From IMG/VR virus record IMGVR_UViG_3300013126_000013: a stretch of DNA of 64,000 nt, one strand, 5' to 3'. The DNA comes from a virus. Lineage: Duplodnaviria > Heunggongvirae > Uroviricota > Caudoviricetes. A program made the translations under genes and the position numbers. Of the stretch, positions 1,040 to 61,151 are shown in pieces (the stretch's first letter is position 1; each line of letters begins with the position of its first letter). Below the pieces are notes generated by a model. The model was given only the letters and a program-made list of their open reading frames with translations. It had not been told where the DNA came from and did no database searches.

Positions 1040-1075
1040 TCTATTTATATCATATTATTCGCGAATGTCAACTAA
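1040..1075 (-). promoter_or_regulatory. phage promoter (TTGACAT -35 + A/T-rich -10), minus strand
   Basis: revcomp GTTGACATTCGCG..TATGATATAAATAG; member of the 36-copy family. Confidence 0.55.
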
Positions 1076-1178
1076 ATAGTTTAGCCCTTTTCATATCGTC
1101 GTTGCTTCTCAAGGTATTCTTCGTGTCTAGGCGTGGATGGAGCTTCTTTTTGTTCTTCCTGTTTCTCCATTCATCACC

Positions 1179-1445
1179 TCAGATACTTGGGTGTTGATAG
1201 ATATGTGAAGCTCTTCCTTCCTTAAAGGCAGTACCAACGTAAATTGAGTGTTCTGGAACAGCTCCTCCGGTTGGTACTACAGTAAAGGTTACATCAATTG
1301 GCACTACAGGTTTTTCGAGCGTTTCGTACCATACAGTTGGAATACCATCTCGTTCATGTGCAGTAAGAACTTTGAAGGCCCCGGCAGATGTTCGGATAGT
1401 TGCACTATCACTGGTGATCTGTACTCTTTGTACGACTCGAGTCAT
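1179..1445 (-). CDS. hypothetical protein (88 aa)
   Basis: ORF with AAGGAG RBS 8 nt upstream of ATG. Confidence 0.5.
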   Translation of the reverse strand: MTRVVQRVQITSDSATIRTSAGAFKVLTAHERDGIPTVWYETLEKPVVPIDVTFTVVPTGGAVPEHSIYVGTAFKEGRASHIYQHPSI

Positions 1446-1455
1446 GCCTTACTCC

Positions 1456-1983
1456 TTAGCGATAAAAGATGTGATTTTCGATTTGAGTAGTCTCTTCAAA
1501 CGATTTGCGCCACTTCGGTTTTACAGAGTCGGCGTGGTACATAGTTGCACCCATCGTAGGGTCGAATGAAGCACCATACGTATTTATAACTACAGTGGCA
1601 ACCTGTAAAGCTTGTTCGTACGATTCTTGATTTTGAATTTCGTCTGATTTACCGTCACAATACCAAGAGAACTGACACTGATTGCGCTTAGGCTGACCAT
1701 CTTTGCCAAGACGAGCTTGCTTAACAACCCCACAGATATCGTCTGGATAGCGATCGTCTGCAGCTCTATTAAGAGTTACATATGCAACTGCTCTTTGACC
1801 AAGCTCGGATTCACCTTTTGCTTCGTGGTAGATGTTGAGAGCTAAGCACTCACGTTGTTCATTATAATCTTCAATCGCCGAAGTGTTGAAGTCTGGGTTA
1901 TACGACGATGCTACTGCATGCGGCAAAAGAGAGATTATGGCTGCAGCCGTGATGGCTGAGCTTACGTTTACTAGAAATTTCAC
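1456..1983 (-). CDS. SleB/CwlJ-like cell-wall hydrolase (endolysin candidate) with signal peptide
   Basis: Hydrolase_2-like motifs (VTLNRAADDRYPDDICGVV, QFSWYCDG); likely GTG start at 1983 (alt 2010) before signal peptide KFLVNVSSAITAAAIISLL. Confidence 0.6.
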   Translation of the reverse strand: MKFLVNVSSAITAAAIISLLPHAVASSYNPDFNTSAIEDYNEQRECLALNIYHEAKGESELGQRAVAYVTLNRAADDRYPDDICGVVKQARLGKDGQPKRNQCQFSWYCDGKSDEIQNQESYEQALQVATVVINTYGASFDPTMGATMYHADSVKPKWRKSFEETTQIENHIFYR

Positions 1984-2080
1984 GGGAAATACTACCTCTG
2001 TTGTTTCCACTTTGGTAAAAATATTTATTCCATAGAAGTCACTACATCAACATTTAATTCTACAACGAGCAGAATTCTGC

Positions 2081-2428
2081 TCATTCCTTGTCTTCAATTC
2101 CAATGATGTCGAATTTGACCAGAAGAGAAAGAATATTCGCAGAGCCTTGGATGATAAGCCATGGTAGAGCAACAAATGCAATATAGCTGTATGGGCTCAT
2201 GTATACGAGAGTTGCCATAGTGATATAAATCATGTACACCATCAACATATGCAAGACGTCAAAGTCAGTTGAAAGGGCAGCTTGAGACAAACCGGTAAAC
2301 AAGCGAACCGCTACAAAATAGAACATTGAAGCAAGTAAAGCAAGAAAGAAGGCAGTTACTTCAATCGCTCCTTCGATTCCATAAGTGGCAGCCAAAGCAG
2401 CTGCCACTCCAAGATACTTAATCATCAT
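2081..2428 (-). CDS. small 4-TM membrane protein (holin-like, next to hydrolase)
   Basis: 115 aa, hydrophobic segments throughout; position adjacent to cell-wall hydrolase. Confidence 0.45.
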   Translation of the reverse strand: MMIKYLGVAAALAATYGIEGAIEVTAFFLALLASMFYFVAVRLFTGLSQAALSTDFDVLHMLMVYMIYITMATLVYMSPYSYIAFVALPWLIIQGSANILSLLVKFDIIGIEDKE

Positions 2429-2433
2429 TTGCT

Positions 2434-3576
2434 TCAGAAAGGAGATTCGTTGCGGTAGTCGTCATCGGGGTTCGTCGTAATGTGCGACTTACCGCTCGGA
2501 GCCGATGCAAGAGCATCGATCTTAGTGTAGAGGTCGACAAAGGCTGCACGAGTATCTTCATCGAAGCGAGAGACGCAGAGGTCGATCGACTTCTTACGAT
2601 CCTTGAAGATCGCGAAGGTCTGAGCGATGTGGCACAGTCGACGAGTGGAGATGATCTCGTCAATGCCACCTTCATCAAAGGTCTTGCGAATGGCAGCCGA
2701 CCATTTCGTCAGGTTCTCAGCAAAGTCTTCGTCGACTTGGCCAAAGAGCTCCATGTGCTTGACGACGATCTTCTTCTCGACCTGAGCCGTCGGGTAGGGT
2801 TGCTCCATCGTGATGGTGAAGCGCTCAAGGAAAGCTTCGTCGATGATCGTAGCGGCGATGAAGCGGCCATCCTCGGAACCTTTACCTTTGGTGTTCGAGG
2901 TGGCGATGATGTTGAAGCCAGCAGCCGGAGTCACAAGCTCACCAGTCTTCTTGATGAGAACAGGCTTACCTTCGAGAACACCCTGAAGAGCCATCAGCTT
3001 GTTCGAACCACGGTCGATCTCGTCGACCAGCAGCATTGCGCCAGCTTCCATCGCTTTGATGACCGGACCTTTCGAGAAGATGGTCTCACCATTCACAAGG
3101 CGGAAGCCACCGATCAAGTCATCTTCGTCAGTCTCAGGAGTGATCTGAACCCGGATGTATTCGCGACCAGCTTCAGCGCAAGCCTGTTCGACCATCATAG
3201 TCTTGCCGTTACCCGACAAGCCGGTAAGATAAACAGGGTAGAACATGCGGGACTCAATGATGGTCGAGATGTCTTTGAAGTGACCCCACTTGACGTAGGT
3301 TTTCACGCGCTTGGGGATGTAGGTGCCTTCTTCCGAGAGGACGATCGTCGGCTGGGCGGTGGCAGTAGTGTTCAACGGAATAACTTTCGCAGAGAAGTCG
3401 ACCACTCCGCGCTTAACAGCAGGAACAGACTTGATCGCTTCCCAGACGGTTTTCGGACGAAAGCCATTTGCCTTTCCGAAGTCAAGAAGTTCTTTACGAG
3501 AGTAGGTTTCTTTACCGCCTTTAGCCGAGCGGATCGAGTCGATGAAAGTTTGGGCGTCAGACATAAGAGTCTCCAT
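2434..3576 (-). CDS. AAA+ ATPase, CobS/MoxR-like
   Basis: Walker A GLSGNGKT, Walker B LLVDEID, sensor ATSNTKG; 380 aa. Confidence 0.7.
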   Translation of the reverse strand: METLMSDAQTFIDSIRSAKGGKETYSRKELLDFGKANGFRPKTVWEAIKSVPAVKRGVVDFSAKVIPLNTTATAQPTIVLSEEGTYIPKRVKTYVKWGHFKDISTIIESRMFYPVYLTGLSGNGKTMMVEQACAEAGREYIRVQITPETDEDDLIGGFRLVNGETIFSKGPVIKAMEAGAMLLVDEIDRGSNKLMALQGVLEGKPVLIKKTGELVTPAAGFNIIATSNTKGKGSEDGRFIAATIIDEAFLERFTITMEQPYPTAQVEKKIVVKHMELFGQVDEDFAENLTKWSAAIRKTFDEGGIDEIISTRRLCHIAQTFAIFKDRKKSIDLCVSRFDEDTRAAFVDLYTKIDALASAPSGKSHITTNPDDDYRNESPF

Positions 3577-3589
3577 GATTTAGCCATTC

Positions 3590-3630
3590 ACTTATTCTAT
3601 ATAAGTCAGTTAAGGGGAAATGTCAACCCC
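3590..3630 (-). promoter_or_regulatory. phage promoter (TTGACAT family)
   Basis: revcomp GGGGTTGACATTTCCCCTTAACTGACTTATATAG. Confidence 0.6.
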
Positions 3631-5754
3631 TTAACTGATAATTTGTGCAAAATTTGCAGCGATCATTCGATCTTGCTTACGCTTGAAAGCCTTGTTAGTA
3701 AAGGCCGAAGCAATGTTACGAGTATCAGAATCAAGATCTTCGTCTTCATCTTCTTCGTCCTTAGTCGAAGAAGTGTTACCAAGAACAGTGAAGATCTGAC
3801 GGTCATATCCATCACGGTTATCCACCGCAATGCAACCATTCTTGTTAACCGTAGCAATAGCATCGGCTAGTTCTTGGCCATCAATGCCGAGGTAGCGCTT
3901 CAGCCCCGAAGTGCCGATCAGGTGGTAGTTCATAGTGCGAACACCCATAGCACGTAGGCCATTCAGGATGCAAGGAGTAGTCTTGCCATAGCCATAGCTG
4001 ACTTCGATCTTCTGGCCAAGGATCTCAATCACTCGCTTCCTGTAACCAGACTTATTGCCACCCAAATCGATGCCGTTTTCAATAAACAAGCCTTCGCCTG
4101 CGCCATCAGTCAACGTGATGAAGTTCATCTTTTGGACCTGATGTTTAGCCTTGAAGTCGGCGATGTGGTGGAACATGGCCAAGATCGAAGTGTCGAGAGG
4201 AGTGCCACCCATTTCTTCAAGTGCACCCTTCCATTGGCGACGGCCATTACCAGTCTGAGCAAAGAGAGCTTTGAAAGCTTCTTCATAGACCTTCTTCGGC
4301 ATTGACGAGTCGATCAGCTTGAAGAGGTGAGTGTTGCTCATGCCGACAGAGGTCAGATGATGCTTAGCAGCACGAACACGAACACCGAAGTCCGGACCAA
4401 CACCGTAGGGGTTGGTGAAGCCATAGACTTCAAACGGAATGTTCACACGCTTACAGAAGGTGGCAAGGATGAGAACCTGCTTGATCACTTTTGGCAGGAC
4501 AGTATCCATCGAGCAAGAGTAATCAATCAGCATCATCATACCGTGCGACTTGTCGTCGTCGAGATGAGTCACTTGTTTAAAGAGGTTGTCTTCGAACTTA
4601 TACTTGTGAAGCACGTTGACGTCAAGCGAACCTTTAGTCGATGTCCGTGCCCGAGCGAAGCGACGAGCAGTCTTACGCATCTCGAACTCTTTTACCATCA
4701 CGGTAACAGAGTCTTTGATATCAGAAAGAAAGCGAATATACTTTCTAGTAGGGAAGTCAGCCGAGTCGACTTTCTTCCAGCGACCTTTCTTCACAGCTTC
4801 GTAGGGAGAAGTGACAGCATTAGCCAATGCTTTGCTCGGCCCTTTGGCATAGAGAGTCGACCCACCGGCATTGATCGAGTCAACAAGCGAGCGAGCAATG
4901 GCTGAACGGAAGAGAGAGTCGGTCTCGACAACATCAGGGTTATCTTCAGTCGTGATGGTGATGGGAGCATCACCGTCTTCAGTCGACTTGTCTTCTTCGT
5001 TGAAGCTGTCGATGTCGACTTCAATCTCGACTTCGCCGCTGAGAATAGCTTCTTTCAGCTCTTCCGACATCGGCTCGGCTTCACCACCACCTTTGCCTTT
5101 CGTGATGATGATCTTTTCAGGGATCGGCTGAGGCATCTTGATGCCGGCTTCTTTAGCAGCTTTCTCAGCTTCTTCCTGAGCCTTGCGAGCAGCTTCGAGT
5201 TCTTCTTTCATGAACGCATAGAGTTCACTGCAGGAAGCCATAACATCTTCCCATGTTTCAACTGCCATGGCACGGTCAACGTAGGGTTGCTCTTTGCTGG
5301 AGAACCTGACGTTGACAAGGCCGCGGCTTTTCGCGAAGATGTTCAGACGGTTCATGAAAGAAAGACCGTTGACGTCTTCTTCTTTGATACCGAAGAAGTC
5401 GCGATCAAGAAGATCTTGATAGCCACGCATGAAAGAACCGAGAAGACCCGGAAACTCGCGAAGCACAAGCTTCTCGATGCGGATGTCTTCAACGATGTTG
5501 ATGTACGAGCGAGGGCAACCAGGAATTTGAGCAGTCGACTCGTGCCAACCTTCAGCCGGAGTGTGAAGGGCATGGCCAATTTCGTGGCCGACGAGCAGAT
5601 CGTAGAGGTCGTTCCCGACGTCTTTCCAATAAGGAAGACCAAGGATACGGCGTTCAACGTCAAAGAAAGCGGTGTGATGGTTAGTCTGTTCAACAGTGAT
5701 GTTCTCACGAGCGAGAAGACGAGCGAGGATAGACTTTTTTGCAAGTGCGGTCAT
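3631..5754 (-). CDS. CobT-like vWA-domain protein with HExxH metallopeptidase-like motif
   Basis: 707 aa; HEIGHALH; MIDAS DYSCSMD; paired with upstream CobS-like ATPase. Confidence 0.55.
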   Translation of the reverse strand: MTALAKKSILARLLARENITVEQTNHHTAFFDVERRILGLPYWKDVGNDLYDLLVGHEIGHALHTPAEGWHESTAQIPGCPRSYINIVEDIRIEKLVLREFPGLLGSFMRGYQDLLDRDFFGIKEEDVNGLSFMNRLNIFAKSRGLVNVRFSSKEQPYVDRAMAVETWEDVMASCSELYAFMKEELEAARKAQEEAEKAAKEAGIKMPQPIPEKIIITKGKGGGEAEPMSEELKEAILSGEVEIEVDIDSFNEEDKSTEDGDAPITITTEDNPDVVETDSLFRSAIARSLVDSINAGGSTLYAKGPSKALANAVTSPYEAVKKGRWKKVDSADFPTRKYIRFLSDIKDSVTVMVKEFEMRKTARRFARARTSTKGSLDVNVLHKYKFEDNLFKQVTHLDDDKSHGMMMLIDYSCSMDTVLPKVIKQVLILATFCKRVNIPFEVYGFTNPYGVGPDFGVRVRAAKHHLTSVGMSNTHLFKLIDSSMPKKVYEEAFKALFAQTGNGRRQWKGALEEMGGTPLDTSILAMFHHIADFKAKHQVQKMNFITLTDGAGEGLFIENGIDLGGNKSGYRKRVIEILGQKIEVSYGYGKTTPCILNGLRAMGVRTMNYHLIGTSGLKRYLGIDGQELADAIATVNKNGCIAVDNRDGYDRQIFTVLGNTSSTKDEEDEDEDLDSDTRNIASAFTNKAFKRKQDRMIAANFAQIIS

Positions 5755-5769: not shown

Positions 5770-5808
5770 TGAGACCAGTCTATACTATACACAAGTGAAT
5801 GTCAACAA
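5770..5808 (-). promoter_or_regulatory. phage promoter (TTGACAT family)
   Basis: GTGAATGTCAACAAAAAAG on plus; -10 TATAGTATAG on minus. Confidence 0.55.
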
Positions 5809-6189: not shown

Positions 6190-6232
6190 TTACTATATAG
6201 ATATAAACACTCACTTGCTAAATGTCAATAGC
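6190..6232 (-). promoter_or_regulatory. phage promoter (TTGACAT family)
   Basis: revcomp TATTGACATTTAGCAAGTGAGTGTTTATATCTATATAG. Confidence 0.55.
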
Positions 6233-6599: not shown

Positions 6600-6637
6600 T
6601 ATTCAGATATAAGCACTCGCATTACAAATGTCAATAC
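6600..6637 (-). promoter_or_regulatory. phage promoter (TTGACAT family)
   Basis: CAAATGTCAATACC on plus; AT-rich -10 on minus. Confidence 0.5.
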
Positions 6638-8040: not shown

Positions 8041-8397
8041 GACTATTTATACAATTATGTATTTACAATGTGTTTGTCGAGGATGAAGAGGTTCATATTA
8101 TTTCCAGTACGTTTGACCGACGCCGAGAAGGCCTAGCTGTACAGATTTAATATGATAGCAGACATATGTCAACCGTTTTTTGCATGTGCAAGAAAAACCC
8201 TCATCATGCATGACAACCTCGCAGCCACGAAATGGCCAAGCTGTGCCAACAAGATGAGAGCCTTGAGTTAAGATTTTGTTATGCTGAAAGTATGTCATGA
8301 TAAGGCATAGACCATCATAAAGACTAGCACACCAAAACTAGCACCTAAAAAGATGCTGGCGATGAGTCCCCAGATAATTGCGTTGAGCAGGTCATCA

Positions 8398-8774: not shown

Positions 8775-8815
8775 TACTAGTTAGATATAGTACTTGGCAA
8801 CGGAAATGTCAACCG
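8775..8815 (-). promoter_or_regulatory. phage promoter (extended consensus copy)
   Basis: CTTACTAGTTAGATATAGTACTTGGCAACGGAAATGTCAACC; near-identical to copies at 37575 and 61110. Confidence 0.6.
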
Positions 8816-8904
8816 GTAAAATGCACTTTTTGCAAATTATTTTCTTGTTGACAACTTTGGCAGGTTGTGTATAATACCTTTAAGGTCTTCAGAATACTTT
8901 GATA

Positions 8905-9249
8905 TTAGATTCCATTAATCTGCTGATACTTCTTCCGTAGATCCATAAACTGTGGTAGCCAGTTCAGTGGCTGTTCTACAAAGATCTGTGGTTGTTCATC
9001 ATCAACCATAACGAGAGTAACAATCTGTTTGATTGGAATACCAGTCAGCTCGTAGAACGCTGCAGCATAGAATGACTCTTGCATGAAGTAACCATTCGTA
9101 TAAATAGTACTGATCGCGGAGGTACCAGCTCCCATCAGCTCTAGAAAACAAAAGGAATTCCCAGCATGGCTATTTATTACACATACCTTATAGGTTGGTC
9201 GAAACTCAATAGATGGTATTATGGCGTTAGATATGCTAAAGATGCTCAT
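8905..9249 (-). pseudogene. truncated duplicate of the 3' end of nuclease gene 9802..10554
   Basis: last ~58 aa (AAFYELTGIPIKQIVTLVMVDDEQPQIF..RKKYQQINGI) parallel C-terminus of the 250-aa gene; N-terminal part unrelated. Confidence 0.55.
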
Positions 9250-11158: not shown

Positions 11159-11633
11159 CTACTTTAATTTCATTGAACGTTAATTCAAACGTTGGAAGTT
11201 TCACTTTGTTCATATCGGGCAAATCTTTCGAGTAGGATACAGACACATGTGGTTTATATTCAGGCCATGCATCTTTCATGTCATAGGTATCTTCATAGTA
11301 TTTTCTGAGTCTCGATATCGCTAGTGACTCTACCTTCAATACCGGTATGTCATTATTAGCTCCAAGCATCATAATGTCAACTACTTTTGCGCTGTTCGGA
11401 GGCGCAATTGTGTGTTTACGATTCGGTATATCATGCTTTGAAGTAGTGAAGAAGATCGTTGTATGAAAGTCGAAGTCTTCTTCGCCCTGCTTCGTACCAT
11501 CATACTTTGTGGTCAGATCAAAGCCGTTTTCTTTTGCCCACTTTCGAAGCTTACGTTGAGTTGCTTCATCATACTGTACAGCAACGTATTTTTCTACCGG
11601 AGCCTTTTCCATAAAATCTCTAAAACTAATCAT
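11142..11633 (-). CDS. hypothetical protein (163 aa)
   Basis: ORF. Confidence 0.45.
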   Translation of the reverse strand: MISFRDFMEKAPVEKYVAVQYDEATQRKLRKWAKENGFDLTTKYDGTKQGEEDFDFHTTIFFTTSKHDIPNRKHTIAPPNSAKVVDIMMLGANNDIPVLKVESLAISRLRKYYEDTYDMKDAWPEYKPHVSVSYSKDLPDMNKVKLPTFELTFNEIKVDDAST

Positions 11634-13764: not shown

Positions 13765-13803
13765 ACATGACCAATATAATCACTTGCAGAAGAATGTCAA
13801 TGG
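13765..13803 (-). promoter_or_regulatory. phage promoter (TTGACAT family)
   Basis: GAAGAATGTCAATGG; -10 from CCAATATAATCAC. Confidence 0.5.
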
Positions 13804-15324: not shown

Positions 15325-15366
15325 TAGACTATAAAATTATATATCAACTGCGGAGAATGTCAACGG
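15325..15366 (-). promoter_or_regulatory. phage promoter (TTGACAT family)
   Basis: GGAGAATGTCAACGG; upstream -10 in ATAAAATTATATATC. Confidence 0.55.
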
Positions 15367-16574: not shown

Positions 16575-16614
16575 TTAAGGGCAGTATACACCATCACAGA
16601 AATGATGTCAACAG
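16575..16614 (-). promoter_or_regulatory. phage promoter (TTGACAT family)
   Basis: GAAATGATGTCAACAG. Confidence 0.5.
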
Positions 16615-18265: not shown

Positions 18266-18515
18266 GGTCTTTCTCCTTCATTTCAAATTGAACGTCTTTA
18301 CGCAAGAACCAGTACAACCAACTGGTCATGCAATGATCTTTATCCCAGAAAAATATCTTGTCGAGAAGCCAAACTACATTCGGCTTTCTTGCTTTCTTTA
18401 AAGCGTAATTTCTTGCACTCAGTGTTTGATTACTTGATCCGCCAAGTATTACATTGAGCAGTACGGATATCGCTGTACCTACTCTTGAAAAATATCTTAT
18501 AACAAGATTTGTCAA
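18258..18515 (-). CDS. hypothetical protein (85 aa)
   Basis: ORF. Confidence 0.35.
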   Translation of the reverse strand: MTNLVIRYFSRVGTAISVLLNVILGGSSNQTLSARNYALKKARKPNVVWLLDKIFFWDKDHCMTSWLYWFLRKDVQFEMKEKDRG

Positions 18516-18525
18516 ATGTCAACTC
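18485..18525 (-). promoter_or_regulatory. phage promoter (tandem TGTCAA boxes)
   Basis: TTTGTCAAATGTCAACTCC. Confidence 0.5.
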
Positions 18526-20638: not shown

Positions 20639-20676
20639 AGATATAGTCTACACTACATGCAGATAGATGTCAACAA
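20635..20676 (-). promoter_or_regulatory. phage promoter (TTGACAT family)
   Basis: AGATAGATGTCAACAAC. Confidence 0.55.
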
Positions 20677-20679: not shown

Positions 20680-20910
20680 TTATTCAAATTCACAATGAAG
20701 TTCTTCTTCATAATAGTAACAGTCGTCAACATATTCGGGGTCGTAACCGTGTTCGATTGCTTGCTGAACATGATATTGATGTCGTGCAAAATCGGCTTCA
20801 GCTTCAAGATGTGCTTGAAGTTCAGAATCTGCACAAGCCGACAAGAGTACGACCGAGATAAGAACGAGATATTTCATGTTGAGCTCCTTGCTATATAGAT
20901 AGCTTATCAT
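20680..20910 (-). CDS. small lipoprotein
   Basis: MKYLVLISVVLLSAC lipobox. Confidence 0.45.
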   Translation of the reverse strand: MISYLYSKELNMKYLVLISVVLLSACADSELQAHLEAEADFARHQYHVQQAIEHGYDPEYVDDCYYYEEELHCEFE

Positions 20911-20932
20911 GTGCTGAAACTGATGTCAACAG
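20890..20932 (-). promoter_or_regulatory. phage promoter (TTGACAT family)
   Basis: CTATATAGATAGC..CTGATGTCAACAG. Confidence 0.55.
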
Positions 20933-21337: not shown

Positions 21338-21582
21338 TGTGTAAATGATCCTGTATTAGGTCTATGAGGGTGAGTAGAACTAGTTCTATTCGATTTCCAG
21401 TGTCCAAAGCCTGAGCTAGTAGTGCCATCATCCCAGGTTTCAACTGAATAGTATTTTTGTAACCATACAGTGTACCCGTCGTCAAGCTCAGTTGGGAGCA
21501 ATGCGAAATAAGTTACAATGCGCTGTTCACCAGATTTTGTTGTCTTCCATTTCATGATATATCTCTTTTTGCCGAATGTCAA
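21334..21582 (-). CDS. hypothetical protein (82 aa)
   Basis: ORF. Confidence 0.4.
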   Translation of the reverse strand: MTFGKKRYIMKWKTTKSGEQRIVTYFALLPTELDDGYTVWLQKYYSVETWDDGTTSSGFGHWKSNRTSSTHPHRPNTGSFTQ

Positions 21583-24292: not shown

Positions 24293-24331
24293 GGTTTTAC
24301 TCTATACCATGAAGTTATAAATGTCAATCAT
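24292..24331 (-). promoter_or_regulatory. phage promoter (TTGACAT family)
   Basis: TTATAAATGTCAATCA. Confidence 0.5.
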
Positions 24332-26339: not shown

Positions 26340-26378
26340 ATAAATAGACTATACTGATCGTTGGAGGATGTCAACATG
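26340..26378 (-). promoter_or_regulatory. phage promoter serving the RNA-ligase C-terminal ORF
   Basis: revcomp GTTGACATCCTCCAACGATCAGTATAGTC; overlaps RBS/start of plus-strand HEG. Confidence 0.55.
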
Positions 26379-27721: not shown

Positions 27722-27761
27722 ACTCGATAGATATAAGTAATCTACTCGGGAATGTCAACCA
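27722..27761 (-). promoter_or_regulatory. phage promoter (extended consensus copy)
   Basis: TTACTCGATAGATATAAGTAATCTACTCGGGAATGTCAACC. Confidence 0.6.
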
Positions 27762-27898: not shown

Positions 27899-28066
27899 TC
27901 ACACCTGATAATCTTGGGGTTCAGAGTTTTTCATACGTTCGAGAAGAGGCTTGAGTTCAGCTCGACGAACTGCGTATTGCGCGATGCCGAGCTGATTACC
28001 TTCCGAGTCGAGCCACAGCGCAGTCCAGAGACGAAGGCTACGATCGTACCAGTGTTCGATTTTCAT
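27899..28066 (-). CDS. small hypothetical protein (55 aa)
   Basis: sub-threshold ORF with AGGAA RBS directly after promoter. Confidence 0.3.
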   Translation of the reverse strand: MKIEHWYDRSLRLWTALWLDSEGNQLGIAQYAVRRAELKPLLERMKNSEPQDYQV

Positions 28067-28082
28067 GCCGGATTCCTTCTCT

Positions 28083-28123
28083 TACTCGATAGATATAAGC
28101 AATCCGGCATGAAATGTCAACCA
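28083..28123 (-). promoter_or_regulatory. phage promoter (extended consensus copy)
   Basis: CTTACTCGATAGATATAAGCAATCCGGCATGAAATGTCAACC. Confidence 0.6.
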
Positions 28124-29313: not shown

Positions 29314-29847
29314 TTATCTCCAGAAGTTGATCAGTTTGGTCCAGAACGATTCTTTGATGCCACGAGCTTCCTTCCACTTCTTCATCATGGAGTAGGACAC
29401 TTCTCGAGCTTCGACTTCCCACGGGAAGTTTCTGTATTGGTTATAAGTCGGTTTAGTCAAGATGTCAACAGAATAGTGTACACCTCGATAGATTTCGCTT
29501 CCATCATGAAGACGCTGAAAGTCTCCACGTACTTCTTGCATCACATGAGTCATCTCATGAAAGATCACCTCGAGAATCTTGTTCATCGGAACACCGCGAG
29601 AAATTTTGATGACGAATCTCAAAGGCTTGAGTTTGCCACGATCATCGTAGAACTGAGTTTTACAGTAACCACTGGTGAGTCCGAATCCATTAACGGATTC
29701 AACTTCATATGGAAACTTGACATATACCGTGTAGTCGTACTTGTCAAGTTTGTGTTCCTTGATGTAGAACTCAAACGCTTCATGGATAGTAGTCCACGCT
29801 TCTTCAGCGAAGAAAATTTTTGCGCCAAGATGTAGACGCACTTTCAT
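29314..29847 (-). CDS. HExxH zinc-metallopeptidase-like protein (SprT/WLM-like)
   Basis: FHEMTHVMQE motif. Confidence 0.4.
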   Translation of the reverse strand: MKVRLHLGAKIFFAEEAWTTIHEAFEFYIKEHKLDKYDYTVYVKFPYEVESVNGFGLTSGYCKTQFYDDRGKLKPLRFVIKISRGVPMNKILEVIFHEMTHVMQEVRGDFQRLHDGSEIYRGVHYSVDILTKPTYNQYRNFPWEVEAREVSYSMMKKWKEARGIKESFWTKLINFWR

Positions 29848-30386: not shown

Positions 30387-30424
30387 TGATCAGGTATAAG
30401 CAATCGACAAGAGAATGTCAACTG
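30385..30424 (-). promoter_or_regulatory. phage promoter (TTGACAT family)
   Basis: GGTATAAGCAATCGACAAGAGAATGTCAACTG. Confidence 0.55.
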
Positions 30425-31439: not shown

Positions 31440-31482
31440 CTTATAGATATGTTCTATACAGTTCTTCAGGTGATGTCAACAA
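31440..31482 (-). promoter_or_regulatory. phage promoter (TTGACAT family)
   Basis: TTATAGATATGTTCTATACAG..GTGATGTCAACAAAAAAAG. Confidence 0.55.
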
Positions 31483-32889: not shown

Positions 32890-32931
32890 TACAAGATAGA
32901 TATAATCTATCCTTCAGGAATGTCAACCACT
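32890..32931 (-). promoter_or_regulatory. phage promoter (TTGACAT family)
   Basis: CAAGATAGATATAATCTATCCTTCAGGAATGTCAACC. Confidence 0.6.
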
Positions 32932-36524: not shown

Positions 36525-36564
36525 GCAAAAACTCCTTTTGCTACTATGTAGGAGCCTCACTGGC

Positions 36565-36606
36565 TCCTACTTCTATTTATATCACAAGTTAATCAGATGT
36601 CAACTT
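36565..36606 (-). promoter_or_regulatory. phage promoter (TTGACAT family)
   Basis: CTTCTATTTATATCACAAGTTAATCAGATGTCAACTT. Confidence 0.55.
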
Positions 36607-37560: not shown

Positions 37561-37574
37561 GTTGTTCTCCGTTG

Positions 37575-37617
37575 CTTACTAGTTAGATATAAGCAACGGA
37601 GAAGCAAATGTCAACCT
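37575..37617 (-). promoter_or_regulatory. phage promoter (extended consensus copy)
   Basis: GTTGCTTACTAGTTAGATATAAGCAACGGAGAAGCAAATGTCAACC. Confidence 0.6.
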
Positions 37618-38320: not shown

Positions 38321-38349
38321 TTGACGTTCTTTGTAGTCTAAGTATAATA
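38321..38349 (+). promoter_or_regulatory. plus-strand sigma70-consensus promoter (TTGACG-17-TATAAT)
   Basis: TTGACGTTCTTTGTAGTCTAAGTATAAT; would produce transcript antisense to 38404..38757. Confidence 0.35.
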
Positions 38350-38971: not shown

Positions 38972-39011
38972 AGAGATATTTATATATCAGTTATGAAGGG
39001 ATGTCAACCCT
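38970..39011 (-). promoter_or_regulatory. phage promoter (TTGACAT family)
   Basis: TTATATATCAGTTATGAAGGGATGTCAACC. Confidence 0.55.
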
Positions 39012-40164: not shown

Positions 40165-40208
40165 GCTTACCAGTTAGATATAAGTCATAGTCTCTCGAAT
40201 GTCAACCG
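40165..40208 (-). promoter_or_regulatory. phage promoter (extended consensus copy)
   Basis: GTTGCTTACCAGTTAGATATAAGTCATAGTCTCTCGAATGTCAACC. Confidence 0.6.
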
Positions 40209-40769: not shown

Positions 40770-40809
40770 CATGCTTCCATTATATCTATATATCAGAAAA
40801 TGTCAACTG
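40770..40809 (-). promoter_or_regulatory. phage promoter (TTGACAT family); boundary with plus-strand block
   Basis: TATATCTATATATCAGAAAATGTCAACTG. Confidence 0.55.
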
Positions 40810-42519: not shown

Positions 42520-42528
42520 AGGAAAAAG

Positions 42529-46212: not shown

Positions 46213-46222
46213 CGGAAACAAC

Positions 46223-47357: not shown

Positions 47358-47993
47358 CTATCTCTTACGACTTTTATACCATCCTTCTGGTATAATGTCA
47401 ACATCTTTTTTGATCTTCTTGTTCTCTTTACCGTCCGTTATCCACATCGTGCCGAACTGAGAATTTGAAGAACCAACATTCTTTGACTTACGCAACTTTT
47501 GTATCGTATCTTCTGAATGCTTCTTTCCTGTAAAGCCTCTACTGTTTTTGCCACCTAGAGAAGAATGAATTTTTCTTTTAGTTACAAAGTCATCATCTGT
47601 TTCCATAAGTCTTTTTATAACTCGTGCAGCTGCAGCAGATGCCTTTTTAGAAAAATTTGGATCTAACCTTCTTTGTTCATCTAAAGATACAGACTTTCCA
47701 CTCATGTTCAGATAACCAAATCCACCATTACCTCCTGGGCAAAGGTTGTAAGTGTCTTCTCTTAAGCAGAACTCTTCTGTTACCAACAGAGCTTCTTTAG
47801 CATTCATATCAGCTTCATTATCAAACTGGAAGAGAATTTCTTTCGTAAAGTTCTCGATTCCATGTTTGTTTTGAGCAGATTTTAGATGTTTACCAGAACC
47901 CATGTAACCATCATTCAAGTCTTTGGTCTGATGTTTTCCAATATAGATCTCGCCATTGATTAGGTTAGTGATCTTGTAGATTGTGTAGAACAT
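47358..47993 (-). mobile_element. GIY-YIG homing endonuclease gene (segB-like position in tRNA cluster)
   Basis: MFYTIYKITNLINGEIYIGKH GIY-YIG. Confidence 0.7.
47365..47404 (-). promoter_or_regulatory. phage promoter inside 3' end of HEG, driving tRNAs
   Basis: revcomp GTTGACATTATACCAGAAGGATGGTATAAA. Confidence 0.5.
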
Positions 47994-48403: not shown

Positions 48404-48800
48404 AAACTATTTGTCCATTGTACACCCGCAACGGACTAACGACTTGATAGGGTGACCCTCAGACTGAGTAGTTGAACTTCTGACATCTTTTAATGTTCAA
48501 CTTCTACGTGCCAACTCGTCTTCTCATGGTGTCGTCTTAACTTTATTCTCTGTTTTCAACGATACACCACCAAAGCGCTTGAAGCCCGAAGAGGTGGCAA
48601 CAGCTACTATGTCTACCCGCTTACATCTTTCGAATGGTGCACGTAGTGTATCTATGAAAACAGAGTACTCGTTATAACACTATTTATATTCGGGTCTTAC
48701 GGGTTTGTCCCTGCCCGATAATCAACTGGAACTTCTACCTTCATGATCTCGGATCGTCGTGGTTTTCTTGTTCCTTACTATTACAATCTATACTATTCTA
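48404..48800 (-). ncRNA. ~400-nt non-coding transcribed spacer (candidate small stable RNA(s))
   Basis: no ORF, no tRNA; lies between promoter at 48807 and tRNAs; near-repeats GTTGAACTTCT/GTTCAACTTCT. Confidence 0.3.
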
Positions 48801-48815
48801 CAGGAATGTCAACTA
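48775..48815 (-). promoter_or_regulatory. phage promoter (TTGACAT family) driving ncRNA/tRNA block
   Basis: CAATCTATACTATTCTACAGGAATGTCAACTAC. Confidence 0.6.
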
Positions 48816-50629: not shown

Positions 50630-50669
50630 TCTTGTTTAATCTATACTATCTACTTGGTAGTGTCAACTA
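50630..50669 (-). promoter_or_regulatory. phage promoter (TTGACAT family)
   Basis: CTATACTATCTACTTGGTAGTGTCAACTAC. Confidence 0.5.
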
Positions 50670-51983: not shown

Positions 51984-52051
51984 ATAAAATTTCAGCCGGT
52001 GAATTCTTTTGTACGTGCGGCCGGATCCGTCACAATTTCTGACTAAAGACA

Positions 52052-52124
52052 AAACTGTAATAGGGATCGAACCCATATCTCCCCGCCGTTCCGCAAGGCG
52101 TGCTATCCATTGCACCATACAGTC
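52052..52124 (-). tRNA. tRNA-like gene, anticodon arm non-canonical (8-nt loop or 6-bp stem); anticodon unresolved
   Basis: acceptor GACTGTA/TACAGTT, D-arm GTGCAATGGATAGCAC, T-arm ATGGGTTCGATCCCTAT. Confidence 0.35.
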
Positions 52125-52338
52125 TACTAGTTCGCTTTCTCGGCAAAGACTGCTACTGTAGTTCTCTAGTCAAGGCAATTGCCGCTGCCTATATAAATTC
52201 CTGGGCATCTCGCAATTGGGACTCTTACCCCTGCATCCAAGCTATGACTCAGACCGTGTTTCCCGATACGCCGAGTAGCCCTGTGGCGTATGTAGTGTTC
52301 TCATTGTAGTAGATGTCGACCTCTTCTACAACGTTTTA
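52125..52338 (-). ncRNA. ~210-nt non-coding spacer within tRNA cluster (candidate stable RNA)
   Basis: no ORF/tRNA; GGCAATTGCC palindrome. Confidence 0.25.
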
Positions 52339-52724: not shown

Positions 52725-52769
52725 TCTCCTCTACACCATCATAATCTAAACTGTTCCACATGTCAACCT
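52725..52769 (-). promoter_or_regulatory. phage promoter (TTGACA-17-TATGAT)
   Basis: revcomp GTTGACATGTGGAACAGTTTAGATTATGAT. Confidence 0.6.
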
Positions 52770-53392: not shown

Positions 53393-53433
53393 ATCTAACA
53401 CTATACTAATTGAAGACGAATGTCAACAACTAT
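53393..53433 (-). promoter_or_regulatory. phage promoter (TTGACAT family)
   Basis: CACTATACTAATTGAAGACGAATGTCAACAAC. Confidence 0.55.
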
Positions 53434-54329: not shown

Positions 54330-55017
54330 GTATATCTTCCATTACAGAATCAATATAAGCTTTTCTATCTTGTTTGTCAACTAATTTTTTGTAGTCAGAC
54401 CATTTTATCCGTATTATTTTCCACCCAAGATTTTCAAGATATTGATTTCTTCTTTTGTCACTCTCTATAATGCGGTCATCTAAGTAATGTTGATCACCAT
54501 CTATTTCAATGTCAATCTTTTTTTCAACTAAAGCAAAGTCAAGTTGATAGGTGTGTATTTGATATTGCTCAACATAGTTTAAACTTACTTTATCAAAAAT
54601 TTTCTTCCAGTATCTTTCTGGATATGATAGGCCTTTGCTATAATGATTTAGTTTATATGGTACCATATCTGGGTTTTCAGAAAGAAATTTTCTCCTAGAA
54701 TTGGAAATTTTGTTTTTAGTTTCTTGGGTATGCTTTCGTCCGACATTAGCGTTACGCAATTTAATTATTGTTTGTTCAGATCTAATAGGTTTTGGTAAGC
54801 CTAATTTATTAGCTTTTGTATATTGGTTTTCACCCTTATATCCAGGTTTCCTACCAGATTTCGATTTAGGCTTAGGAAAGGGATTGCTTACACAACGATT
54901 TTCATGTGCTTTATTTGCACCAGGATTAGTAGTTTCTCTGCCACAAAATTGGCAAATAAATAGTTTCATGCTGGAAATCTCCGTTTGTGTTTCTAGAGTA
55001 GGTAGATGTTGGCGCAT
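54298..55017 (-). mobile_element. homing-endonuclease-like gene: N-terminal Zn-finger + C-terminal Vsr/DUF559-like (PD-(D/E)xK) nuclease domain
   Basis: CQFCGRETTNPGANKAHENRC; ..DFALVEKKIDIEIDGDQHYL..; 3' end overlaps tRNA-Lys(UUU). Confidence 0.5.
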
Positions 55018-55232: not shown

Positions 55233-55273
55233 TACTTACTCAGTTATAAACAGTCTTTTCAGAATGTCAACAA
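55233..55273 (-). promoter_or_regulatory. phage promoter (TTGACAT family)
   Basis: TTATAAACAGTCTTTTCAGAATGTCAACAAC. Confidence 0.55.
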
Positions 55274-55300
55274 CTATTTTCGTTTTCCATAAATATTTTT

Positions 55301-55789
55301 ATGAAATATCTTATTCTCATATTCGCCCTTGCCGGCTGTTCGAACAATATGTTCTTGAGCCGTGTCATACCACCAGTTGAGCCGGTAGATACTGCTGCAT
55401 CTATGATTGGCCTACATGAAAAAACCTCAAGAAAAGAGATTCGCAAATTCATAGGTCTCGACCCAGTTAGGTATCAATGGTGTGCAGCATTTGTCAACTC
55501 GGTACTTCACTATCATGATATTCCTGGGTCTGAAACCGTAAGCCGCCATCCGCTTCTTGCAAGAAGCTTTTTGAAGTGGGGTGAGCCGGTTCAAGAGCCA
55601 GAGTTCGGAGATATCGTAATATTTACTCGAAACAACAATAACTGGCAAGGTCACGTTGGTTTCTATATAGAGTCTGCTATCGTAGATGGTGTCCCAAGCT
55701 ACATTGTGTTAGGTGGAAACCAAGACGATGAGATTAAGTACAAAGCGTACCCAACATCAAGATTGCTTGGAATCCGAAGAATACCTTGA
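55301..55789 (+). CDS. NlpC/P60-like (TIGR02594-type) cysteine peptidase lipoprotein
   Basis: lipobox LAGC; YQWCAAFVNSVLH..GDIVIFTR..GHVGFY Cys/His motifs. Confidence 0.45.
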   Translation: MKYLILIFALAGCSNNMFLSRVIPPVEPVDTAASMIGLHEKTSRKEIRKFIGLDPVRYQWCAAFVNSVLHYHDIPGSETVSRHPLLARSFLKWGEPVQEPEFGDIVIFTRNNNNWQGHVGFYIESAIVDGVPSYIVLGGNQDDEIKYKAYPTSRLLGIRRIP

Positions 55790-55991: not shown

Positions 55992-56031
55992 GAGTTTTTC
56001 TTCTATATTAGATCGACACGAATGTCAACCG
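55992..56031 (-). promoter_or_regulatory. phage promoter (TTGACAT family)
   Basis: TTCTATATTAGATCGACACGAATGTCAACCG. Confidence 0.55.
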
Positions 56032-56165: not shown

Positions 56166-56350
56166 TTGAACCATGTACTCTAGCTTGTTAGCTGTTGTAC
56201 CCCCTCATGTTCATAATATTAAGTTCTTCACAACGCACGGTAAAGCGATAGCCAGGCTGTGCCTGCATATGCTTTGAGACTGATGCGATAGTGGGTTTCA
56301 TTGAAGGATAGTTCCTGTTAGTTTGTTTCTTATACTATTTATACACTGAT
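56166..56350 (-). ncRNA. ~190-nt non-coding segment between promoter and hairpin (candidate small RNA)
   Basis: no ORF/tRNA; bounded by promoter 56360 and hairpin 56165. Confidence 0.3.
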
Positions 56351-56368
56351 TCTTGATGATGTCAACAA
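56328..56368 (-). promoter_or_regulatory. phage promoter (TTGACAT family)
   Basis: TTATACTATTTATACACTGATTCTTGATGATGTCAACAAAAAAG. Confidence 0.55.
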
Positions 56369-57820: not shown

Positions 57821-57835
57821 CATGGAGATATTTAT

Positions 57836-58429
57836 ATGATTCCTAAGAAAATACTAACACAGTTCAAACTAACTGTCAACTATAATTGTTCAAAATGTAA
57901 TATTTCTTCTTGGTTAGAAAATAAGATTACATTAGAAGTTGACCACATTGATGGTGACAACACTAATCATAGCTTATCAAATCTAAGATATCTTTGCCCG
58001 AATTGTCACAGCCAGACAGATACGTGGAGAGGTCGAAACAAAAATACTGGAAAGGTAAAAGTTTCGGATGAAGAACTATTGAGTGCTATTCATGAAACTG
58101 CAAATATAAGACAGGCTCTCATTAAAGTAGGATTGTCTCCTAGAGGACCAAACTATAACAGAGTTTCAAAGTTGTTAAATACATATGAAATAGACTTCAA
58201 AAATTCTCAATATAATACTGTTTGGATAAATGATGGAACACTCAACAAAAAAGTTAAACATGAAGTATTAAATGAATATTTAGCTACTGGATATAAGATT
58301 GGTAGAATTGGAATTACTCAACCATCAGTTAAAGGAAAGGTATGGGTAACTAATGGAATTATTAATAAAATGTGCAACCCAGACTCTATTCCAGATGGAT
58401 TTTGGAGAGGAAAATTCCACAGAAATTAA
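57836..58429 (+). mobile_element. HNH homing endonuclease gene
   Basis: LEVDHIDGDNTNHSLSNLRYLCPNCHSQTD HNH motif; plus strand. Confidence 0.65.
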
Positions 58430-59862: not shown

Positions 59863-59863
59863 A

Positions 59864-60079: not shown

Positions 60080-60270
60080 TCACGTTTTTCTTTCATTGCA
60101 TCGTGGGCGCAATCAACATAGTCTTTGTCTTCGTCTGTCATATGCGCCCAATACTTAGACAAAGACTCAATCAATTCAGCGACAGCATTAGGTGTTTCGA
60201 TGTGCATTTGAGCATTCATCAAATGCTCTAGAGCCTGCATCTTTCGTTCGACTTTTTCAGCGATACTCAT
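60067..60270 (-). CDS. hypothetical protein (67 aa)
   Basis: ORF. Confidence 0.4.
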   Translation of the reverse strand: MSIAEKVERKMQALEHLMNAQMHIETPNAVAELIESLSKYWAHMTDEDKDYVDCAHDAMKEKREWIV

Positions 60271-60443
60271 GCTGCCATACTCTTAATCATTTTCTCTTCT
60301 TCAAGACTTTGTTCAAGCTGAAGATCTTCTACGAAGAATTCAATCCGCATCATAAGATCTTCTTTCGTGTGGCCATAAGTTTTGGCGCGACGAACGATGT
60401 CTTTCAGGCGGATGATCACGGTGTCGTAGTCTTGCATCTGCAT
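60267..60443 (-). CDS. small hypothetical protein (59 aa)
   Basis: sub-threshold ORF, ATGA coupling. Confidence 0.3.
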   Translation of the reverse strand: MQMQDYDTVIIRLKDIVRRAKTYGHTKEDLMMRIEFFVEDLQLEQSLEEEKMIKSMAA

Positions 60444-60457
60444 CTTTTTTCTCCGGT

Positions 60458-60499
60458 TTACTTATATAGAGTATACTAAACTCTGCCATATGTCAACAG
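60458..60499 (-). promoter_or_regulatory. phage promoter (TTGACAT family)
   Basis: TATATAGAGTATACTAAACTCTGCCATATGTCAACAGG. Confidence 0.55.
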
Positions 60500-60514
60500 G
60501 AAAAATCACTAAGT

Positions 60515-60772
60515 TCACGCATTCTTTTTACCCTTCTTGTTTTTCTTGTCTTCAACAATACGAGCTGCAAGTGCTTTGCTCTTGTCCCACATTTCTTGGA
60601 CGTCTTTGTACCGCTGAGTCGTAATCCACTCGCCGGTCATAAAGCCCCAAGACTGAATTGCGCGGGTCTTCGTTCGATGACTTTGGATAAGACGAGACTT
60701 CATACAAACCGGTTCTTTAATCTCGTCAATCACGTCGAATTGTACGCCGAAGTCGATGTTTTTCGTATTCAT
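60515..60772 (-). CDS. hypothetical protein (85 aa)
   Basis: ORF. Confidence 0.4.
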   Translation of the reverse strand: MNTKNIDFGVQFDVIDEIKEPVCMKSRLIQSHRTKTRAIQSWGFMTGEWITTQRYKDVQEMWDKSKALAARIVEDKKNKKGKKNA

Positions 60773-60780
60773 CTTTTACC

Positions 60781-61089
60781 TCAAAAGTTGTAGTCATAGA
60801 AGCGCTTGGGCTTGTCGGACAGACGATGTTCGCCGTGGATCGACTTCCACTTTCCGCTTTTCTGCAGGCGAGCACGAACAACGGGCGAACCTTCGCGGGG
60901 GCTGTAGGTGTACTCTTGAGTGCTGTTGTTTACACAGTGAGCGCTAAAGCCGCCGGCGATCATCTCGGGTTTCCACCCGTCGACGAGCTTGGCATTCATC
61001 TCACGGATTTCGATGGTTTTGTCAGAAACAACACGAACAACTTCATAGGGGACGATGTCAGAGTAACCGATCAGATTCGCGAATTTCAT
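60781..61089 (-). CDS. hypothetical protein (102 aa)
   Basis: ORF. Confidence 0.45.
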   Translation of the reverse strand: MKFANLIGYSDIVPYEVVRVVSDKTIEIREMNAKLVDGWKPEMIAGGFSAHCVNNSTQEYTYSPREGSPVVRARLQKSGKWKSIHGEHRLSDKPKRFYDYNF

Positions 61090-61109
61090 GGTGTAGCCTT
61101 TCGTTGCCT

Positions 61110-61151
61110 TACTAGTTAAATATAGTACTTAGCTACGGAAATGTCAACCAG
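61110..61151 (-). promoter_or_regulatory. phage promoter (extended consensus copy)
   Basis: CTTACTAGTTAAATATAGTACTTAGCTACGGAAATGTCAACC. Confidence 0.6.

Follow-up and report, generated by a model that had tools for sequence, protein, structure and literature searches.

The early promoters of the T4-like phages RB49, RB43, and Aeh1 carry a -35 element of GTTGAC and lie 5' of early-gene orthologs, novel small open reading frames (ORFs), and transfer RNA (tRNA) genes (PMC1524935), and the cassettes of RB49 and phi1 contain the near-perfect sequence TTGACA-N17-TATAAT (PMC2839356; PMC4122927). In the units known as PeSLs, an AT-rich region, a sigma-70-like promoter, a Shine-Dalgarno sequence (SD), and a start codon are accompanied by a terminator stem-loop just upstream (PMC2839356; PMC4122927). 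Here, we analysed a promoter-like sequence repeated on the minus strand of a stretch of 64,000 nucleotides (the window, by which we mean this whole stretch) from IMG/VR virus record IMGVR_UViG_3300013126_000013. With a probability of about 0.82, we consider these repeats to be the early promoter class of an undescribed T4-superfamily phage, mostly arranged as modular expression cassettes; the early assignment follows from the membership of the phage in the T4 superfamily, as in RB49, RB43, and Aeh1. The kind of element is already known, namely T4-like phage early promoters in PeSL-like cassettes, and a subset of promoters embedded in hairpins is a modest new variant of it. We infer the sigma factor, the early timing, the exact transcription start sites (TSSs), and the translational effect of the hairpins from the sequence. 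On this reading, the early transcription units of this uncultured phage (∼195 kb) can be usefully mapped from the sites, and numerous metagenome contigs of freshwater and marine origin contain its lineage.

GTTGACAT has 33 exact copies in the 64-kb window, none of them on the plus strand, whereas dinucleotide shuffles contain 2.74 on average and at most 8. Printing the contexts of all TTGAC(A/T) occurrences added seven near-variants in which the first or last base is altered and the architecture is the same, i.e., ATTGACAT at 24327, 13800, 6634, and 6228, GTTGACAG at 57879, GTTGACAC at 50666, and GTTGACAA at 54380. The total is 40 full minus-strand sites of the form (G)TTGACAT-N16/17-TAtAnn, every one of them co-oriented with the minus-strand genes. 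The original prediction of at least 36 copies confined to the minus strand and facing the same way as its genes thus holds, and the motif is not equally frequent in shuffled sequence. The A/T-rich element that had been placed 17 bp from the core proved to be a TAnnnn -10 element at 17 nt in 31 sites and at 16 nt in the other nine. A weight-matrix scan gave 40 hits on the minus strand, two on the plus strand, and about one per shuffle; as the matrix was built from the same 40 sites and the scan is circular, only the strand asymmetry and the shuffle level are informative. No site occurs between 40807 and 47372, and the genes in that gap (40841-46543) are on the plus strand.

In the alignment of the 40 sites, TTGACA is invariant, preceded by G in 90% and followed by T in 93%, with mostly T or C at the next two positions, and the -10 element reads T (97%), A (100%), t (65%), A (80%), n, t/c. 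An A/T-rich block lies 5-10 nt upstream of the -35 element (G/C at positions -7 to -5 in 0, 1, and 3 of the 40), and G is favoured at the third base 5' of the -10 element, which is not a classical TGn extension. Gene starts were assigned by a simple ORF-plus-SD rule and TSSs were predicted as 7 nt past the -10 element. In 25 sites, an SD-like purine run is present and the start codon follows the first T of the -35 element by 47-64 nt; the mode of 53-54 nt is likewise found in 178 unique cassettes from relatives. We propose that the host sigma-70/RpoD holoenzyme would bind, right after infection, to a site reading 5' to 3' as A/T-rich UP-like block, (G)TTGACAT, free spacer of 16/17 nt, and TAtAnn, and that transcription would start ∼7 nt past the -10 element. 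About two-thirds of the sites would then yield a leader of ∼18 nt running straight into SD and ATG, and the remaining sites would start at or just before tRNA or transfer-messenger RNA (tmRNA) genes or produce long leaders.

Like the early promoters of RB49/phi1, RB43, and Aeh1, the sites combine G-TTGAC-A, a 17-nt spacer, a TAnnnT-type -10 element, and an A/T-rich block upstream, and they occur in dozens of co-oriented copies per genome, 5' of nucleotide-metabolism genes, novel ORFs, and tRNAs. Unlike those of RB49, RB43, and Aeh1, they belong to a phage of another lineage, position -7 is relaxed, and a TATATCTAACTAGTAAG block, conserved in eight sites, distinguishes one subclass. In this subclass (class A), which has eight copies in the window and recurs in the related loci L007, L012, and L017, the shared parts, i.e., the -10 element TATATC, the start region TAACTAGTAAG, and often the leader CAACGGAG, all lie downstream of the -35 element. 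The extended consensus of about 45 nt that had been noticed earlier does exist: CTTATATCTAACTAGTAAG (minus-strand sense) with up to three mismatches has eight copies, on the minus strand only, against none expected (8773, 27719, 28081, 37575, 40166, and 61108, all equal or close to the positions given earlier, and in addition 6595 and 32888). It is not the extended upstream element that had been suggested as a possibility, being composed of the -10 element, the initial transcribed region, and the 5' untranslated region (UTR) of this one cassette subclass.

At five sites, transcription is predicted to start 0-23 nt ahead of a tRNA or tmRNA gene. They are (with motif, spacer length, and -10 element; minus strand here and below unless marked otherwise) 57851..57879 (GTTGACAG-17-TAGTAT; TSS 23 nt before tRNA-Leu at 57821), 54352..54380 (GTTGACAA-17-TATATT; TSS 16 nt before tRNA-Lys at 54329), 53398..53426 (GTTGACAT-17-TAGTGT; TSS 5 nt before tRNA-Ile at 53386, the first of a tRNA-Ile/Met/Tyr run), 50638..50666 (GTTGACAC-17-TAGATT; TSS 5 nt before tRNA-Asp at 50626), and the tmRNA promoter 1044..1071 (GTTGACAT-16-TATAAA(TA)), whose predicted TSS at 1037 is the 5' end of the Rfam permuted-tmRNA match (738-1037). 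The tRNA-Leu promoter overlaps the beginning of an HNH ORF on the plus strand (57836-58429). One copy had been said to overlap the ribosome-binding site (RBS) of a plus-strand homing endonuclease gene; this is only approximately correct, as the copy covers codons 6-15 of this HNH ORF, and the element between its RBS and ATG is a minus-strand copy of the T4 late-promoter consensus TATAAATA, not a sigma-70-type site.

The relatives with which the window was compared (loci numbered with an L) come from pattern and protein scans of IMG/VR and metagenome contigs and have 70-98% protein identity. Close relatives keep both the motif and its strand bias, with strand counts of 14/0 in L007, 10/0 in L012, 12/1 in L053, and 12/0 in L068. 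Across 126 orthologous upstream regions, selected by downstream protein similarity alone and with no promoter criterion, identity to the window is 94% in the -35 element, 88% in the -10 element, and 81% in the SD, against 69% in the spacer and 65-71% in the flanks. This pattern indicates that the two hexamers, and not the spacer, are under purifying selection at a fixed distance, as for a promoter. The promoter of the CCA-adding enzyme gene (20645..20673; GTTGACAT-17-TAGACT; ATG at 20620, 415 aa), for instance, is kept in ∼15 of 21 orthologous upstream regions with a diverging spacer. In the more distant L017, L019, and L020, some orthologous promoters carry TGTACA for TTGACA and an extended TGGTATAAT -10 element, which suggests that this branch has a shifted promoter dialect.

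Cassettes are tightly packed against the upstream gene, and several copies had been described as lying inside the 3' ends of ORFs. This is borne out: at least nine upstream ORFs end on the TGA within TTGACA (37611, 24324, 15360, 39004, 13797, 6631, 55267, 48809, and 20670), the stop-sharing genes including a ClpP-like ORF (before 37614) and a 400-aa ORF (before 15363). Terminator stem-loops were sought with a custom scan, because the generic terminator rule skips stems extending through A-U pairs (e.g., at 31479 and 40205), and in the window the counts of the generic scan were likewise those of shuffles. The custom scan found an upstream terminator at four of the 40 sites (0.6 for random positions), so that terminator insulation would be available at these four only. 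They are 40177..40205 (class A, GTTGACAT-17-TATATC; ATG at 40150, 93 aa; a 12-bp stem and T-run ending 12 nt upstream), 31451..31479 (GTTGACAT-17-TAGAAC; ATG at 31421, 42 aa; also carrying a 6-bp fold-back helix), 27730..27758 (class A, GTTGACAT-17-TATATC; ATG at 27705, RNA-ligase-like protein of 218 aa), and 5777..5805 (GTTGACAT-17-TAGACT; ATG at 5754, CobT-like protein of 707 aa), where GTGCAGGT..ACCTGCAC followed by TTTTTT adjoins the -35 element.

Like PeSLs (Arbiol 2010, Comeau 2014), the window sites form units of AT-rich region, promoter, SD, and start codon, are clustered among small ORFs, and have different genes behind the same cassette; unlike in PeSLs, the defining stem-loop is present at 4 of 40 sites, and some stem-loops enclose the promoter itself. 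We rejected full PeSL membership, given that the upstream stem-loop is missing in 36 of 40; the sites are PeSL-like in function and evolution and not full PeSLs. Between the ligase-proximal cassette at 28120 and the following one at 27758, the window contains orf55 and orf40, L007 contains an extra orf62 followed by a homologue of orf55 that has no promoter, and L002 contains five unrelated ORFs. As in PeSLs, homology sometimes extends into the first codons: an ORF of the window and an unrelated ORF of L003 have in common the cassette and their first five codons (MKFAN). Homology breakpoints with relatives lie within 45 nt of a cassette in 18.5% of cases against 6.1 ± 1.9% at random positions, a difference that is confounded in that similarity tends to stop at gene boundaries anyway. 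The cassettes may mark exchange points of gene modules between related phages, and would in this way make it easier to read how these genomes evolved. Stop codons in every frame are built into 18 of 25 cassettes against 12.3 ± 2.4, an enrichment so weak that we do not claim them as a design. The HD (24327) and Toprim (30421) ORFs were considered as halves of split genes and rejected as such, the ORFs upstream being unrelated (a nuclease in one case and an ORF with no match in the other).

In about five of 25 window cassettes, the spacer is complementary to the SD or AUG region of its own gene, placing the promoter within a fold-back hairpin. This subset, in which the SD and/or AUG is paired, consists of the sites at 37614, 28120, 8812, 31479, and 24327. 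At 37586..37614 (class A, GTTGACAT-17-TATATC; ATG at 37560, 92 aa; the -35 TGA being the stop of the ClpP-like ORF), CTCCGTTGCTTA pairs with TAAGCAACGGAG in a 15-bp helix (37563..37601; minimum free energy (MFE) -27.1 kcal/mol, z -6.1) with the GGAG of the SD in the 3' arm, and this hairpin is identical in L002 and L104. At 28092..28120 (class A, GTTGACAT-17-TATATC; ATG at 28066, 55 aa), CATGCCGGATT pairs with AATCCGGCATG (28064..28111; MFE -28.2 kcal/mol, z -6.2) with the AUG in the 3' arm, and the hairpin is kept in L093 and has one mismatch in L108. At 8784..8812 (class A, GTTGACAT-17-TATATC; ATG at 8758, 51 aa), TCCGTTGC pairs with GCAATGGA (MFE -17.6 kcal/mol, z -2.5). At 31479, TCACCT (31468-31473) pairs with the SD AGGTGA (z -1.9), and the fifth promoter is 24299..24327 (ATTGACAT-17-TAGAGT; ATG at 24274, HD protein of 151 aa; the -35 TGA being the stop of a nuclease-like ORF). 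None of the five has TATAAATA as its -10 element.

The duplex energy of a spacer with its own UTR is lower than with the UTRs of other cassettes (permutation p = 0.003 in the window, n = 25; p < 2e-4 for 166 unique cassettes), and among these 166 energies of -16 kcal/mol or below are reached by 4.2% of own pairs against 0.36% of cross pairs. Compared with shuffled 3' arms, 5 of 25 window cassettes stand out at p <= 0.05 and 3 of 25 at p <= 0.01, as do 8.4% of cassettes over all loci at p <= 0.01, and strong independent cases occur in distant relatives (e.g., L081, L082, L068, and L077). Two helices could be followed in ortholog sets, which are small (8 and 13 sequences). The 11-bp helix of the 24327 family (8 sequences) has 84% of its cells paired, against 37-62% with a slid partner; five of 11 pairs have changed on both sides, and the covariation score was reached by 0 of 500 shuffles; this partner-shuffling control ignores phylogeny, a weakness from which the slid-partner control is free. 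For the 6-bp helix of the 31479 family (13 sequences), the corresponding figures are 79.5% and 27-47%, and one pair is split as CG:5 / UA:5.

The geometry of these hairpins suggests what they might do. With the 5' arm located in the spacer and the start of transcription predicted within either the loop or the 3' arm, a transcript from the cassette's own promoter would lack the 5' arm and be translatable, whereas a read-through transcript would contain both arms and fold over the RBS. Read-through is expected at the three cases that are strongest or best supported, namely 37614 and 24327, where the upstream stop codon is within the -35 element, and 28120, where no terminator precedes the promoter; late transcripts starting from a TATAAATA at 38984 might also cross the 37614 cassette. 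The hairpins would thus probably keep read-through transcripts from being translated, a step to which we give about even odds. We tentatively suggest, at somewhat less than even odds, that a subset of the early promoters sits in fold-back hairpins so that their genes would be translated only from their own early transcripts and stay silent on read-through, as an alternative to terminators for insulating packed, exchangeable modules.

Precedents exist for such an arrangement. In T4, the genes e, soc, 49, and I-TevI have an RBS-sequestering hairpin with an internal promoter, and only the transcripts from the internal promoter should be translatable (PMC3014915). As there, the 5' arm in the window cassettes is upstream of the internal start and the 3' arm covers the SD or AUG; unlike there, where the nested promoter is late (gp55) and early read-through is silenced, the nested promoter here is of the sigma-70 early type and the effect is predicted. 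The window hairpins would be a mirror image of the T4 late-promoter hairpins, silencing read-through from upstream early or late promoters. In the fold-back inhibition of IS10, reportedly described by Davis, Simons and Kleckner in 1985, translation of the transposase is inhibited on transcripts from outside promoters. IS10 is similar in that a mobile module shields its own gene from read-through by a helix with its 5' arm upstream of its own start, and differs in the element and protein involved and in having an antisense RNA, of which there is none here. If the suggestion is right, phages use promoters enclosed by RBS hairpins in both temporal directions, and the cassettes offer a compact case of translational insulation and a small natural part that ties gene expression strictly to its own promoter.

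The explanation that competes best, which we regard as unlikely on balance, is that the inverted repeats are not translational at all and are instead recombination scars, a 3' stabiliser or attenuator of the upstream gene (a shifted stem-loop of a PeSL), or RNase sites. PeSL crossovers have been mapped in stem-loops (PMC2839356), and the hairpin at 28120 is present only where orf55 abuts the cassette, orf55 of L007 having neither promoter nor hairpin. The hairpin at 3598..3637 points the same way. There, CAGTTAAGGGG-TTGACATTT-CCCCTTAACTG forms an 11-12-bp hairpin (MFE -20.5 kcal/mol, z -4.9; ATG at 3564, AAA/CobS-like protein) whose loop holds the -35 element of the early promoter and which does not enclose the RBS; in L017, its arms have changed together and the hairpin survives despite a degraded -35 element, so the stem-loops do not all have the same role. 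Three further points count against translational blocking: hairpins occur in a minority of sites only, they are absent or weak in some orthologs (e.g., the 37614 ortholog in L007 and GTAC variants of the 31479 family), and a leader of 18 nt makes overlap between the 3' arm and the SD nearly unavoidable. The helices contain 15 G·U cells against 10 A·C cells, a preference for the sense strand that is weak and not decisive. Against the scar, stabiliser, and processing readings stand the compensatory changes that keep two helices paired through 8 and 13 diverged orthologs, the lack of a U-run after any promoter-embedding stem, and stems of 6-15 bp, short for RNase III, and all three readings are weakened by these observations. 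The 3' arm, moreover, covers the SD or AUG in all strong cases, and the arrangement is the established one of T4 e, soc, 49, and I-TevI (PMC3014915).

The early-promoter reading itself faces contrary results. T is found at -7 in only 50% of the sites and C in 33%, so many would be weak by E. coli rules, and a loose generic sigma-70 scan found about as many sites in the window as in shuffles (34 vs. 32.9, 29 vs. 28.0, and 53 vs. 45.3), because its E. coli-style rule requires the T at -7 that is relaxed here. The signal is the exact -35 element together with strand and position, rather than generic hexamer likeness. The -10 element, by comparison, fits alphaproteobacterial RpoD better than the E. 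coli consensus. The RpoD consensus, from S. meliloti, is CTTGAC-N17-CTATAT (PMC2873474), and the sites share with such promoters the TTGAC of the -35 element, the 17-nt spacing, and a TATAT-type -10 element without a strict T at -7; they differ in having G and not C before TTGAC.

The atypical -10 element, with C or A at -7 in half of the sites, and the TATATCTAACTAGTAAG block in eight of them could conceivably mean that the promoters are read by a phage-encoded sigma-70-family factor or need a phage activator or co-activator, and thus form a delayed or middle class; four -10 elements are perfect copies of TATAAATA, and more than one holoenzyme may read some sites. We consider this improbable. 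The -35 element is the perfect host consensus with 17-nt spacing and a UP-like block, whereas T4 middle promoters have a MotA box in place of the -35 element (PMC1524935). Further, the motif resembles known early promoters in preceding tRNA, tmRNA, and nucleotide-metabolism genes, alphaproteobacterial RpoD promoters normally have a relaxed -7 (PMC2873474), and no sigma gene was found among the window ORFs scanned, which were not all of them. The original prediction of an early/middle class recognised by sigma-70 therefore keeps its early half, which the sequence-level tests support, and nothing favours a T4-style middle class (a MotA-box motif was not sought). It is very improbable that the repeat serves recombination, replication, or packaging or bounds a small mobile element, for while the cassettes coincide with module-exchange points and eight copies have in common a 19-nt block beyond the hexamers, the conserved part is just the two hexamers, set at promoter spacing around a free spacer, the copies are strictly co-oriented with genes at a fixed distance from SD and ATG or directly before tRNA/tmRNA, and no terminal repeats, target duplications, or recombinase accompany them.

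The early promoters belong to a phage that was placed by protein similarity only, because a megablast of a 6-kb stretch gave no DNA match among 50,697 phage records. Its best protein matches, at 30-60% identity, are in cyanomyophages, Sinorhizobium phage phiM12, Caulobacter phage Cr30, and roseophages, and the window encodes ribonucleotide reductase (NrdA), an ATP-dependent DNA ligase (gp30-like), an RNA-ligase/gp63-like protein, NAMPT, an NMNAT-Nudix fusion, a CCA-adding enzyme, a CobS-like AAA ATPase, and a CobT-like protein, together with 33 tRNA genes. Copies of the T4 late-promoter consensus TATAAATA number 22 in the window, a 12-fold excess over the 1.8 expected, with 18 of the 22 on the minus strand (e.g., 59655, 57536, 56862, 55040, 51648, 48033, 47201, 14654, 12104, 8051, and 1588) and plus-strand examples at 9099, 26339, 40811, and 57730. 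Between tRNA genes, many copies directly precede endonuclease ORFs of the HNH, GIY-YIG, or NUMOD type, and the copy at 40811(+) precedes the plus-strand gene block. The protein matches, the 33 tRNAs, a tmRNA, and the enrichment of TATAAATA are the grounds on which we assign the window to an undescribed phage of the T4 superfamily with what appear to be the usual two promoter languages, and the T4 early/late promoter logic would extend to its lineage.

The two languages meet at four early sites whose -10 element is itself a copy of TATAAATA (1049, 36581, 38984, and 56343) and which may be dual early/late promoters. Besides the tmRNA promoter, they are 56338..56365 (GTTGACAT-16-TATAAA(TA); ATG at 56301, 37 aa, followed by tRNA-Cys), 38979..39007 (GTTGACAT-17-TATAAA(TA), with the -10 element in a 7-bp hairpin), and 36576..36603 (GTTGACAT-16-TATAAA(TA); ATG at 36524 of the NMNAT-Nudix gene, with a leader of 43 nt). 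At 39007, the predicted TSS coincides with the ATG at 38971 of an 80-aa ORF (38729-38971), and the mRNA may be leaderless.

The tmRNA is a permuted two-piece molecule of the alphaproteobacterial type (695-1075; Rfam 101-104 bits) with the early promoter 1071 upstream. The tmRNA type and the relaxed -7 point to a probable alphaproteobacterial host. A search for the host through the CHASE2-cyclase gene in bacterial genomes gave only ∼50%-identical matches, on contigs of metagenome-assembled genomes labelled Bacteroidetes and without the promoter motif, and a literature search on the motif itself returned nothing usable.

Several of the remaining sites precede an SD-bearing gene at close range. 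These are 61119..61147 (class A, GTTGACAT-17-TATATT; ATG at 61089, 102 aa, 58 nt from the -35 element), 60468..60496 (GTTGACAT-17-TACTCT; ATG at 60443, 58 aa), 55243..55270 (GTTGACAT-16-TATAAC; ATG at 55218, 47 aa; the -35 TGA being the stop of ORF 55267-55452), 52738..52766 (GTTGACAT-17-TATGAT; ATG at 52719, 101 aa), 32899..32926 (class A, GTTGACAT-16-TATATC; ATG at 32872, 90 aa), 26346..26374 (GTTGACAT-17-TAGTCT; ATG at 26312, 166 aa), 20901..20929 (GTTGACAT-17-TAAGCT; ATG at 20877, 65 aa), 16583..16611 (GTTGACAT-17-TATACT; ATG at 16562, 400 aa), 13773..13800 (ATTGACAT-16-TATATT; ATG at 13748, 193 aa), 6606..6634 (class A, ATTGACAT-17-TATATC; ATG at 6580, 114 aa), and 6200..6228 (class A, ATTGACAT-17-TATATC; ATG at 6170, 116 aa). 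The class A-like site 30393..30421 (GTTGACAT-17-TATACC) precedes the ATG at 30368 of a Toprim protein (174 aa), and its cassette is present in some relatives and absent from others. Two sites have the full consensus, i.e., 40779..40806 (GTTGACAT-16-TATAAT; ATG at 40749, 161 aa), which is back-to-back with the TATAAATA(+) at 40811, and 15336..15363 (GTTGACAT-16-TATAAT; ATG at 15307, 284 aa), whose -35 TGA is the stop of the 400-aa ORF.

Other sites lie at a distance from their presumptive targets. The promoter at 8144..8172 (GTTGACAT-17-TAAATC; ATG at 8025, 226 aa) has a leader of 111 nt within which a TATAAATA is found at 8051, and 48785..48812 (GTTGACAT-16-TAGATT), whose -35 TGA is the stop of ORF 48809-49036, also has a long leader. 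The 3' end of a GIY-YIG ORF contains the site 47373..47401 (GTTGACAT-17-TATAAA), with tRNA-Gly following 181 nt downstream at 47185, and two more are inside ORFs, namely 29440..29468 (GTTGACAT-17-TATAAC; in ORF 29314-29847, with the DNA ligase ATG at 29312 ∼120 nt downstream) and 11352..11380 (GTTGACAT-17-AATAAT; in ORF 11142-11633). No SD-bearing ORF lies within 250 nt of 56000..56028 (GTTGACAT-17-TAGAAG), and the targets of 21554..21582 (GTTGACAT-17-TATCAT) and 18494..18522 (GTTGACAT-17-TAAGAT) are uncertain.

On the plus strand, the only two promoter-like sites (8848-8875 and 38321-38348) have TTGACA or TTGACG, N16, and TATAAT, lack the exact 8-mer, and form a small family of their own with ∼60 nt in common including GTATAATAnCTTTAAGG. 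They aim antisense into the minus-strand ORFs 8905-9249 and 38404-38757 and could be antisense or small-RNA promoters. The plus-strand island (40841-46543) consists of eight genes amid the minus-strand early region with a TATAAATA upstream, and includes a FecR-domain protein (43169-44215) and a fusion of a CHASE2 sensor with an adenylate/guanylate cyclase (44212-46212). The plus-strand HNH endonuclease ORF (57836-58429) sits between tRNA genes of the opposite strand. Among the RNA genes, 51812-51902 matches the Rfam tRNA-Sec model (50.6 bits against a threshold of 47) with no ARAGORN call, and may be an unusual class II tRNA, since other long-arm tRNAs also score on that model; ARAGORN also calls a tRNA with a 4-base anticodon at 52051-52125.

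The 5' leader of the NMNAT-Nudix gene (36525-36570) is structured and conserved (fold z -4.9). Its first hairpin, GTAGGAGCC-AGTGA-GGCTCCTAC, begins near the predicted +1 and has a conserved loop and compensatory stem changes in L145, L009, L102, and L113, and its second, GCAAAA-GGAGT-TTTTGC, holds the SD in the loop and reads GTAAAA/TTTTAC in L008-L010. The structured leaders match no known Rfam family at a permissive threshold, and that of the NMNAT-Nudix gene could be a 5' stabiliser or a translational operator.

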